From positions 5,755 to 69,754 of the forward strand of contig JBAXJB010000003.1 of NCBI GenBank assembly GCA_037138055.1: DNA of 64,000 nt, written 5' to 3'. The notes under the pieces are model-generated. The model had not been told where the DNA came from. It ran no database searches and was given only the letters and a program-made list of their open reading frames with translations. The position numbers and the translations under genes are program-made. Positions 41,145 through 42,211 of the stretch are shown here, piece by piece (position 1 is the first letter of the stretch; every line of letters begins with the position of its first letter). Source of the DNA: Alphaproteobacteria bacterium (GTDB taxonomy: Bacteria > Pseudomonadota > Alphaproteobacteria > Paracaedibacterales > CAITNM01).

Positions 41145-41196
41145 AACACCTATAACTAATCGGCGATTTGTGGCAAAAATATGCCTGTAACAAACG
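41145..41196 (+). repeat. Direct repeat copy 1 (about 52 bp)
   Basis: AACACCTATAACTAATCGGCGATTTGTGGCAAAAATATGCCTGTAACAAACG. About 46/52 positions are identical to the copy at 42161-42211 by my hand alignment. Confidence 0.85.
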
Positions 41197-41211
41197 TAAG
41201 TCGTTGTATTT

Positions 41212-41940
41212 TTACTCACTTGCTAGCATAAACCTTATTGATGATCTCATTTCTATATCTTTTTCACAAATGGTCAAAAACCCTTTATCTAAGTCTAGCG
41301 ATAATAAAAACTGACATTTCACTAAAGGTTCTTTGCTAACAACGTATTCCAACTTAAATTTTAATAAATTTGGAATAGCTTTTCCTATTTCTAGGTCAGG
41401 CAGTTCTTGTGTTTCAGCTCTCACAAGAACCTGCCCATTTTTATTGAACTTCGTAATCTTTATTTTTTCGATATCACCATACAAAAGTGCTGTATCAAAA
41501 GTAATACTTTTCTTGCAATGATAAATTTCATTATCCTCAATAGTACTCAACAGTAGATTGGCAAAATTCAATCCAGGCTCACCTTCTAATAAGAAAACAG
41601 AACCAGTATCATTCCATTTCGCAACGGGATTACTTTCTACATTTACAAGAACGTTATTTTGATCAGTATGATATATATTAAAAGGCTGCATGTCTTTTTT
41701 AACTACAAAAATCACTTTTATAGTTTTTTTTTGAAAGATTCCCTGAGCAACTATGGTAATTAAGTCACTTTCCATTTTTACGTTTTTAATAGGAATACTT
41801 ATACTGGATAAGTTACACGTAAACATAATTTCAGCTTTTGGCTTATCGTTCTTAAAAACGTCAATTTTGCACAAAATAACAAAAATGAAAAACACAGATA
41901 TAGATAGCGCAATAGAAAACTTAGTCATAGTTTTTAACAA
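41212..41940 (-). CDS. Hypothetical membrane-anchored protein (orphan) inside the repeat-bracketed insert
   Basis: N-terminal TM segment FSIALSISVFFIFVILC. The remainder looks beta-rich with no recognisable motif. One sampled line (41701-41760) has 16/60 G+C. Confidence 0.45.
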   Translation of the reverse strand: MLKTMTKFSIALSISVFFIFVILCKIDVFKNDKPKAEIMFTCNLSSISIPIKNVKMESDLITIVAQGIFQKKTIKVIFVVKKDMQPFNIYHTDQNNVLVNVESNPVAKWNDTGSVFLLEGEPGLNFANLLLSTIEDNEIYHCKKSITFDTALLYGDIEKIKITKFNKNGQVLVRAETQELPDLEIGKAIPNLLKFKLEYVVSKEPLVKCQFLLSLDLDKGFLTICEKDIEMRSSIRFMLASE

Positions 41941-42160
41941 ACATTTTTATTAAGAAAGCCTATCTCAATTTACAAAATATATCAATCAAATCAGGACTTA
42001 GACAGGACTTTAGTGACCAATTCAAAGTCAGACACGACAAAGCTTCCGATGATACAAGACAGGGAATTTCGTTATATTTAAGAACTTCAATTGGCAAAAA
42101 ACTTCACAGCACTGGCCCCGTAATTTTACGATAGACATACATACAAATGCTGTACAACCA

Positions 42161-42211
42161 AACACCTATAACTAACCGGCGATTTGTGGCAAGGTATGTC
42201 TGTAATAAACG
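42161..42211 (+). repeat. Direct repeat copy 2 (about 51 bp), abutting the rsmA start
   Basis: AACACCTATAACTAACCGGCGATTTGTGGCAAGGTATGTCTGTAATAAACG. See copy 1. Confidence 0.85.

Follow-up and report, generated by a model that had tools for sequence, protein, structure and literature searches.

Background

The closest described counterparts of the locus analysed here are the minimal mobile elements (MMEs) of Neisseria (Saunders & Snyder 2002 Microbiology 148:3756, as cited in PMC1538595), which, as far as that citation presents them, are alternative genes placed between the same two conserved genes without any genes for mobility. Our subject is a pair of direct repeats in a 64,000-nucleotide stretch of contig JBAXJB010000003.1 from an alphaproteobacterium (hereafter the window, to which all coordinates refer unless a relative is named), where the repeats bracket an AT-rich segment carrying a single gene, called here the orphan, between a gene resembling flaR and rsmA. 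Other systems that invite comparison are integron arrays, the attL/attR sites of prophages and islands, and homology-facilitated illegitimate recombination, described in naturally transformable bacteria, in which a homologous anchor on one side is combined with an illegitimate join. Sequence comparison indicates that both repeats are the leftover first 17 codons of a decayed pbpC gene, encoding PBP1C, which lay head-to-head with rsmA. The relatives in which the same locus can be inspected include members of Candidatus Finniella, obligate cytoplasmic symbionts of cercozoans and ciliates, in which the type VI secretion system (T6SS) is the main candidate system for interaction with the host (PMC11909080).

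Identity of the repeats

The repeat, designated S, is about 52-63 nt long, and its two copies are located at 41145-41196 (copy 1) and 42161-42211 (copy 2). The preliminary description of the locus had reported two direct repeats of about 52 bp with about 46 of 52 positions identical, and our searches bear this out. In a repeat search of the window the core 41145-41176 matches 42161-42192 at 31 of 32 positions, and with a single 1-nt indel the match reaches 41196 and 42211, with 46/52 columns identical; a pattern allowing up to three mismatches has two matches in the whole 64-kb window and none in 100 shuffles. The weaker similarity of about 15 bp upstream of the repeat, also remarked upon earlier, is real, since the gapped local alignment pairs 41136-41206 with 42151-42220 and scores 40.5, which none of 2000 shuffles reach (8.9 +/- 1.5). 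Overall, the two copies exhibit 88% identity, i.e. 12% divergence, and the longest stretches of unbroken identity in the core measure 15 and 16 nt. The insert between them is indeed AT-rich, with a GC content of 26-33%, but the flanks are at 40-45% rather than at the roughly 50% stated before.

Relatives were collected in several ways. Nine loci (L001-L009), with one genome per species, come from a protein scan with rsmA (71-98% protein identity) and belong to metagenome-assembled genomes (MAGs) classified as Candidatus Finniella, 'Odyssella' or unnamed alphaproteobacteria; further contigs were found with the orphan protein (L010-L012), with a degenerate S pattern in a metagenome scan (L013-L015), and with homologues of the flaR-like protein (L016-L023). 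In three of them (L008, L002 and L009, the last being the most distant relative) the gap between tssG and rsmA is filled by a minus-strand gene of 630 amino acids, whose product is PBP1C. The L008 open reading frame (ORF) scores 511.8 bits against TIGR02073 (curated cutoff 494) and contains the Transgly, Transpeptidase and BiPBP_C domains. In all three, the start codon of pbpC stands back to back with that of rsmA. The N-terminus of PBP1C in L008, MLQPYFATKRRLVIGV, is encoded by the reverse complement of S, and copy 2 of the window, compared with it, translates as MRLLQTYLATNRRLVIGV..., its reading frame running MRLLQTYLATNRRLVIGVW... until a stop. S, read on the minus strand, consists of codons 1 to approximately 17 of pbpC together with the 12 nt that form the leader of rsmA, and a tblastn search aligns 42208..42068 of the window with residues 1-36 of the L008 PBP1C at E = 1e-3.

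The right-hand copy, as a feature, occupies 42161..42214 on the minus strand, the ATG of pbpC being the CAT at 42212-42214 of the plus strand, and it represents the resident stub of the gene: it is identical to the corresponding sequence of the L001 genome, which has an empty site, at 54 of 54 positions, and it holds the same position, directly upstream of rsmA, in L001-L004, L008 and L013-15. It was described earlier as ending 3 nt before the start of rsmA; this is true for the GTG at 42215, but the conserved ATG at 42224 is the likelier start codon. Beyond copy 2 the homology to pbpC runs for about 28 more codons, to about 42044 (DNA alignment, 8/1000 shuffles), although an insertion of about 32 bp (~42101-42132) and the loss of 2 nt interrupt it. 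Copy 2 thus belongs to a 5' pseudogene fragment of about 170 bp (codons 1-45, frameshifted), of which codons ~18-45 lie at 42044..42160 on the minus strand. Hence the 220 bp between the ORF and copy 2 are not plain non-coding DNA, as had been thought: from about 42044 to 42214 they and the repeat are the decayed 5' fragment of pbpC.

Copy 1 (41145..41208, minus strand, positions 1-63 of the nhmmer model of S) is a stub of codons ~1-17 as well, but its left flank is different. The 43 nt preceding it (41102..41144, minus strand) resemble the last ~13 codons of pbpC and its stop, the TTA at 41102-41104, and overlap the last 17 nt of the flaR-like gene. The same arrangement is found in L019, where an intact pbpC lies tail-to-tail with a flaR-like gene and overlaps its 3' end by 17 nt; the L019 segment 1956-2303 is 93% identical to residues 516-630 of the L008 PBP1C. 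Across this junction of the 3' ends of flaR and pbpC the window and L019 are identical at 33 of 36 positions, which none of 1000 shuffles equal. It is on this comparison that the 3' origin rests, the similarity between the left spacer of L001 and the pbpC 3' end of L008 being not significant by itself (141/500 shuffles). Since the left flank matches the 3' end of pbpC, copy 1 is an allele with an internal deletion, which joins codons 1-17 directly to the last ~13. It carries a 1-nt indel, has TTA in place of the ATG start codon, and is presumably inert. The deletion junction of copy 1 is also present in L001, L003, L004 and L013-15, as well as upstream of flaR in L010, L016 and L017; being shared by so many contigs, the deletion arose once and is old.

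Both repeats thus show the features expected of pseudogenes, namely homology to the N-terminus of PBP1C (and in copy 1 also to the C-terminus) and synteny with the intact pbpC of relatives. As judged from these alignments, the window holds the wrecks of two copies of pbpC, with the orphan gene between them in the orientation of pbpC, and the repeats are old paralogues, each with its own pbpC-derived flank, rather than the fresh footprint of an insertion. PBP1C itself has been lost in this strain, at least within this locus.

The variable slot between tssG and rsmA

In comparisons of the window with its relatives, DNA homology has two exact breakpoints, the tssG stop codon (40553) and position 42161, where copy 2 begins. 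The two genes that delimit the gap are conserved: on the left tssG (39540..40553, plus strand; Pfam T6SS_TssG, E = 4e-54) and on the right rsmA, also called ksgA (42224..43069, plus strand; TIGR00755 with 234 bits against a cutoff of 171, and Pfam RrnaAD). What lies between them is hypervariable and includes at least four kinds of content, and no mobility genes were found. Besides the intact pbpC described above, an "empty" spacer of 113 bp holding a single S is seen in L001 and L003, and it is here that the single-copy empty site, whose existence in relatives it had been suggested to look for, was found. In L004, L013-15 and L006 the gap contains a gene for a Sel1-repeat protein with a signal peptide (800-1061 amino acids; fragments in L007), accompanied by one S in L004 and L013-15. 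Finally, the flaR-like gene and the orphan occupy it in the window, L010 and L017; neither has a tblastn match in L001-L009.

The Sel1 occupant is a Sec-signal protein whose conserved N-terminal domain of about 400 amino acids matches nothing in Pfam; the Sel1 repeats that come after this domain vary in number. The gene was located at 6646-9831 (minus strand) in L004 and at 7289-9694 (minus strand) in L006, it is present in L013-L016 and L019, and in L007 it is split into two fragments.

Reassortment and recent exchange

The copies of S fall into three types, each bound to its own right-hand partner: S_r leads to the ATG of rsmA (copy 2), S_f to the ATG of flaR, and S_o to the stop codon of the orphan (copy 1). 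S_f and S_r are 84% identical over 63 nt. All three types occur together on one contig, L010, in the order tssG-S_f-flaR-S_o-orphan-S_r-rsmA. When the left flanks (tssG, the Sel1 gene and the orphan) are combined with the right flanks (rsmA and flaR), all six of the six pairings are seen, including the orphan-S_f-flaR junction of L018. We rejected the possibility that L018 is an assembly chimera: the longest identical runs shared by S_r and S_f are 15 and 18 nt, and only the 15-nt one lies at the join in L018, below the k-mer sizes of at least 21 that assemblers are assumed to use; with no more than 18 identical nt in common, the reassorted junctions are therefore not chimeras of k-mer assembly. 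S_f with the flank from the Sel1 side is present in L019 too, where flaR has no more than 84% protein identity and 89% DNA identity. Since S_f already exists in this diverged lineage, the duplication of S is old and predates the divergence of the strains.

A much younger event is visible in the comparison of the window with L010. In tssG the two are 93.8% identical, and in the flaR segment 40616-41039 they differ at 19 of 424 nt (4.5%). There are no mismatches in 41040-41896 and two in 41897-42214, and mismatches resume at 42215. The block 41040..42214, which comprises copy 1, the orphan, the pbpC fragment and copy 2, thus has two mismatches in 1175 bp. A near-identical block of about 1.17 kb amid flanks diverged by 4-6% must have moved recently between diverged backgrounds, and since it ends inside flaR and at the border of S and rsmA, not at the boundaries of the repeats, it shows the pattern expected from homologous recombination.

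Origin and spread of the modules

The explanation that we consider likely is that the copies of S are relics of pbpC, and that the modules of the slot were added by duplication or one-sided recombination and then spread by homologous recombination. The ancestral locus would have had tssG and rsmA pointing rightward and pbpC leftward between them, its start codon back to back with that of rsmA, the order still kept in L008, L002 and L009. The slot would be a recombination hotspot common to co-occurring Finniella strains, and it would have acquired its modules either through segmental duplication or through homology-facilitated illegitimate recombination of the one-sided kind. A piece of the type orphan - pbpC 5' fragment - S_r - rsmA that arrives there would find a homologous anchor on the right and be joined illegitimately on the left, just after the resident S; the product predicted for such an event, flaR-S_o|orphan-...-S_r-rsmA, is exactly the arrangement of the window. 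Because the incoming piece brings its own S, each event would leave one more copy of it. The modules would then be reshuffled and spread by ordinary homologous recombination, with S, flaR and rsmA providing the homology, and a dedicated recombinase would not be needed. Copy 2 would keep the native upstream sequence of rsmA intact, and the orphan gene probably rides on the old promoter of pbpC. Among the three origins put forward in the preliminary description, this scenario is closest to an insertion that duplicated the leader or promoter of rsmA. The repeat does lie directly upstream of rsmA in every close relative, and an empty site with one copy exists; the unit, however, is the 5' coding stub of a pbpC gene that was lost, and the copies are old paralogues with 12% divergence.

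Several observations weigh against this explanation. The order of events is not reconstructable, as Campbell-type integration of a circle, tandem duplication with unequal crossing-over, and one-sided illegitimate recombination all give the same product. Two junctions, namely that of S_f with the ATG of flaR in L010 and L016-19 and that of S_o with the stop codon of the orphan, are located at nearly the same point, the position of the rsmA ATG. Such precision exceeds that of random illegitimate joins and hints either at a specific site or at selection for the capture of a promoter; the simplest account of both junctions would be selection of the latter kind, for a promoter or a leader. We know of no natural transformation or other route of DNA uptake in these obligate endosymbionts. 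The haplotype of a donor, with the orphan and the pbpC 5' fragment but without copy 1, was not observed among the comparison contigs, which are mostly short metagenome assemblies. The source genome was seen over 64 kb, and copies of S elsewhere in it are possible. Finally, the promoter roles are ones that we infer, and a scan for sigma-70 promoters and terminators yielded fewer promoter-like sites than in shuffles, with none in S.

The precision of the junctions leads directly to an alternative, in which the copies of S are functional rather than debris and are kept by selection as a portable promoter or leader, because each rightward gene in the slot, rsmA or flaR, would need the sequence found upstream of rsmA, and rearrangements would persist only if they brought a copy along. 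S_f reaches the ATG of flaR in five independent contigs (L010, L016-L019), and even in L019, a diverged lineage, 84% of its 63 nt still match S_r. Reading of the sequences suggests that S_f carries TGn-TATAAA, a motif resembling an extended -10 element, about 15 nt ahead of the ATG; S_r has a weaker version of it (TGTAATAAA), and in copy 1, which is inert, it has decayed (TGTAACAAA). Moreover, S_r is 97-100% identical among most of the strains in which rsmA is 93-95% identical to that of the window (94% in L003). On the other hand, copy 1 precedes no rightward gene and faces the stop of a minus-strand ORF, the flaR-like gene of the window has no S at all but 49 unrelated bp in its place, the more distant relatives L005-L007 lack S upstream of rsmA, and the promoter scan mentioned above was empty in S. 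The sample is also too small to show purifying selection. Taken together, we regard a selected leader as unlikely to be the reason for the presence of the repeats.

A specific site, the other possibility raised by the junctions, would make S the crossover site of an integron-like or att-like cassette system, in which genes excise as circles and re-insert at the rsmA-proximal S, with the recombinase encoded elsewhere. It is tempting to read the L010 contig, S-flaR-S-orphan-S-rsmA, as an array of cassettes, and the orphan-S-flaR order of L018, which shares 15 nt at the join and is not a k-mer chimera, as a permutation of that order or a junction of the circle type. The single-S empty sites of L001 and L003 and the two junctions at the same point of S agree with this reading, and the first 15 nt of S (AACACCTATAACTAA) are constant in all copies except for the diverged one of L019. 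However, no gene for a recombinase was found in the 64-kb window, where none of the ORFs of at least 100 amino acids has a Pfam domain of an integrase, transposase or other recombinase. S contains no inverted repeat according to the repeat search and no hairpin (folding z +1.1 to +1.4): on either strand the folds of S_r and S_f are poorer than those of their shuffles (z +0.25 to +1.4), and the longer copy-1 region folds like its shuffles (z -0.5, -1.3). Nor does S match Rfam, either in a scan of the whole window at the gathering threshold or in 40400-42400 at E <= 1. The cassettes would point in opposite directions; one ancestral deletion junction in pbpC, together with the continuing pbpC homology, accounts for the left "boundary" of S; the recently exchanged block runs past S into flaR; and the crossover of L018 falls within one of the two longest runs identical in S_r and S_f, as expected also under plain homologous recombination. 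We therefore give this system a low probability, and the same is true of its more elaborate version, in which S would be the working site of a gene-capture platform built from a pseudogene stub and moving S-bounded circles between co-infecting Finniella strains; genes would then enter at the rsmA start, each gaining a copy of the rsmA leader, and the process would be run by a recombinase elsewhere or by RecA alone. The related proposal of the preliminary description, that the repeats are attL/attR-like remnants, does not hold: the window has no integrase or transposase, the tRNA nearest to the slot, and the sole one of the window, is tRNA-Ser at 10995-11084, 30 kb away, there is no hairpin, and the exchanged block (41040-42214) exceeds the repeats.

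An origin of the repeats from a transposon or an element like an insertion sequence, as its terminal repeats or target-site duplication, or from a dispersed repetitive extragenic palindrome or miniature inverted-repeat element, is effectively refuted, for although direct repeats do bracket an AT-rich insert of 1 kb, they span 52-70 bp, far above known target-site duplications (2-14 bp), are 12% diverged and not palindromic, are accompanied by neither terminal inverted repeats nor a transposase in the window, and are confined to the slot within the DNA searched. The last point also disposes of the dispersed regulatory repeat suggested earlier and bears on the question of copy number that was raised with it. 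A profile of S (nhmmer, 10 sequences, filters off) searched against 274 kb of Finniella DNA, that is the window and all loci, gave 20 matches, all of them in the tssG-rsmA slot, and a metagenome scan with a degenerate S pattern retrieved three contigs only (L013-L015), with all matches at rsmA.

The gene between the repeats

The minus-strand ORF 41212-41940 reported between the copies exists, with a TTG start and an alternative ATG at 41928, from which the gene (41212..41928, minus strand; protein family P0075-P0087) encodes 238 amino acids, or 242 from the TTG at 41940. Its upstream region, 41929..42043, travels with the gene, being 99.4-99.6% identical in L010, L011 and L012, and no homology to pbpC was detected in it. 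The qualification of the gene as an orphan is correct in so far as the family is rare, but it is not a strict orphan: a k-mer-indexed protein search returned its own cluster only, and when 1.84 billion representatives were scanned in full with phmmer, 11 clusters of remote homologues emerged (27-42% identity). One of the homologues is fused to ankyrin repeats and another lies within a protein of 3767 amino acids.

AlphaFold2 (AF2) gave a useless model from the single sequence (predicted local distance difference test, pLDDT, 38.6), and a good one with an alignment of homologues (pLDDT 85, predicted TM-score 0.79), with a predicted N-terminal transmembrane helix at residues 4-26 and a predicted beta-rich domain at residues 40-235 (~195 amino acids). 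Foldseek comparisons of the model with PDB and BFVD returned nothing at E <= 1e-3, with all TM-scores at or below 0.3, and the family profile found nothing among PDB sequences. The protein has no Pfam, PHROG-like or PADLOC identity either. The predicted structure suggests that the family may represent a new fold used by intracellular bacteria. The position of the gene after tssG had led to the suggestion of a T6SS accessory or immunity function; Pfam, PADLOC and structure searches revealed no signature of a T6SS adaptor, effector or immunity protein, so that the link is one of adjacency, with no evidence for or against it.

The orphan is found together with copy 1, at 99.8% identity to the window, on two further independent contigs of about 1 kb, L011 and L012. 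Both leave the window sequence at 42083/42084, inside the pbpC 5' fragment, and continue into 52-76 nt without placement (L011 1-76, L012 1-52), which points to another context for the orphan module.

Neighbouring genes

The flaR-like gene (40603..41118, plus strand) encodes a P-loop kinase of the "DNA topology modulation protein" family (NCBIfam PRK08118, E = 1e-36, below the curated cutoff) and is an accessory gene. In the window it is preceded by a 49-bp spacer (40554..40602) that shows marginal similarity to the left part of the L001-type spacer (p about 0.05). This spacer is peculiar to the window; in all the other contigs that extend upstream of flaR (L010 and L016-L019), S_f takes its place up to the ATG of flaR. 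PADLOC gave P-loop-level matches only. In L020 (Paracaedibacter) and L023 (another MAG), the flaR-like kinase is found in dense arrays of genes for GNAT acetyltransferases, an APH-type kinase, nucleotidyltransferases and GyrI-like proteins, which look like islands for the modification of small molecules or antibiotics. The presence of its homologues in such arrays suggests a kinase acting on small molecules, not a "DNA topology" protein. A native pairing of the flaR-like gene with pbpC in other genera was considered and rejected, the distant homologues being located in unrelated islands of acetyltransferase and APH genes.

Another accessory gene, orf279 (44726-45565, plus strand), lies between pepP and dksA. 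It has a low GC content (30-34%) and encodes a protein with a signal peptide and without Pfam or PADLOC matches. It is present in L001, L004 and L013-15 and absent from L002 and L005-L009, and this patchy distribution makes its site a second variable slot, 2.5 kb downstream of the first. The idea that orf279 is flanked by a duplicated target was rejected, since the similarity of its 3' end to that of pepP is not significant (135/2000 shuffles).

On the other side of the slot, directly upstream of tssF, an ORF of 805 amino acids (35285-37702, plus strand) has no Pfam or PADLOC match. Its identity in L006-L008 is 44-62% versus 81-99% for TssF, and L006 contains two or three tandem copies or fragments of it; it may be a fast-evolving T6SS-associated protein. 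In L008, the tssF matches (5309-7119) come in two pieces that meet at residue 93, a frameshift that indicates either a pseudogene or a sequencing error in the MAG. A VgrG gene (Phage_GPD, Phage_base_V and gp5_C domains) followed immediately by a gene for a MORN-repeat protein of 283 amino acids occupies 27829-30854 (plus strand), and the latter is a candidate for a VgrG-linked cargo. This pair lies 8 kb from tssF and tssG, and since genes for a signal peptidase, a patatin, tsaD and a transporter of the major facilitator superfamily are located in between, the T6SS genes are scattered.

Significance

For annotation, our analysis implies that the repeats should not be labelled as att sites or as a mobile element, and that both of them, as well as the stretch formerly regarded as 220 bp of non-coding DNA, should be recorded as pseudogene fragments of pbpC. 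For the biology of the group, it is of more interest that the locus is a population-level polymorphism of gene content in Candidatus Finniella (Paracaedibacteraceae), i.e. in obligate protist symbionts that are often assumed to recombine little: a single slot at the end of a block of T6SS genes has had at least four contents and reassorted flanks, and one module has moved very recently between strains about 6% apart in neighbouring core genes. The cargo of the slot includes Sel1-repeat proteins with signal peptides as well as the product of the orphan gene, which is membrane-anchored, belongs to a rare family and has a homologue fused to ankyrin repeats. As these are the kinds of proteins that endosymbionts use on their hosts, the slot may serve as a marker for strain-specific genes of host interaction. 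We regard the locus as being of moderate interest for the population genomics of endosymbionts and of low interest as a "new element".

Comparison with known systems

The locus has two features in common with the attL/attR sites of prophages and islands: direct repeats flank a low-GC insert, and relatives have an empty site with a single copy. Here, however, neither an integrase nor a tRNA target is present, divergence between the repeats amounts to 12% and their end cores are not identical, the bracketed segment is a single ORF, and each repeat has a different pbpC-derived flank. Integron arrays likewise consist of tandem units of a gene and a repeat of ~60-110 nt beside a fixed, promoter-proximal site, vary in the order of units between strains, and have an empty platform. 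They differ in that no IntI was found in the window and S shows neither the imperfect inverted repeats nor the hairpin of attC, that the units here are in mixed orientation, and that S is demonstrably a fragment of a pseudogene.

Homology-facilitated illegitimate recombination, of which we know no demonstration in Holosporales, predicts the layout observed around copy 1, with the resident S followed by an abrupt non-homologous join near the position of the rsmA start, while foreign DNA that ends in its own S and rsmA supplies the homologous anchor, as would be the case here.

The MMEs, as far as the account cited at the beginning describes them, share with the slot the placement of alternative genes between the same two conserved genes, and their exchange by homologous recombination in the flanks fits the mosaic pattern of identity seen here. 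The near-identical 1175-bp block in flanks diverged by 4-6%, together with the reassorted flanks, is a pattern that spread of the MME type would produce. The differences are that this slot also holds repeated 5' relics of pbpC, which act as internal homology, and that its host is an obligate intracellular symbiont. The locus is thus a variable slot, probably driven by recombination like the MMEs, littered with the relics of a pseudogene: a known kind of thing, of which it provides a new example.

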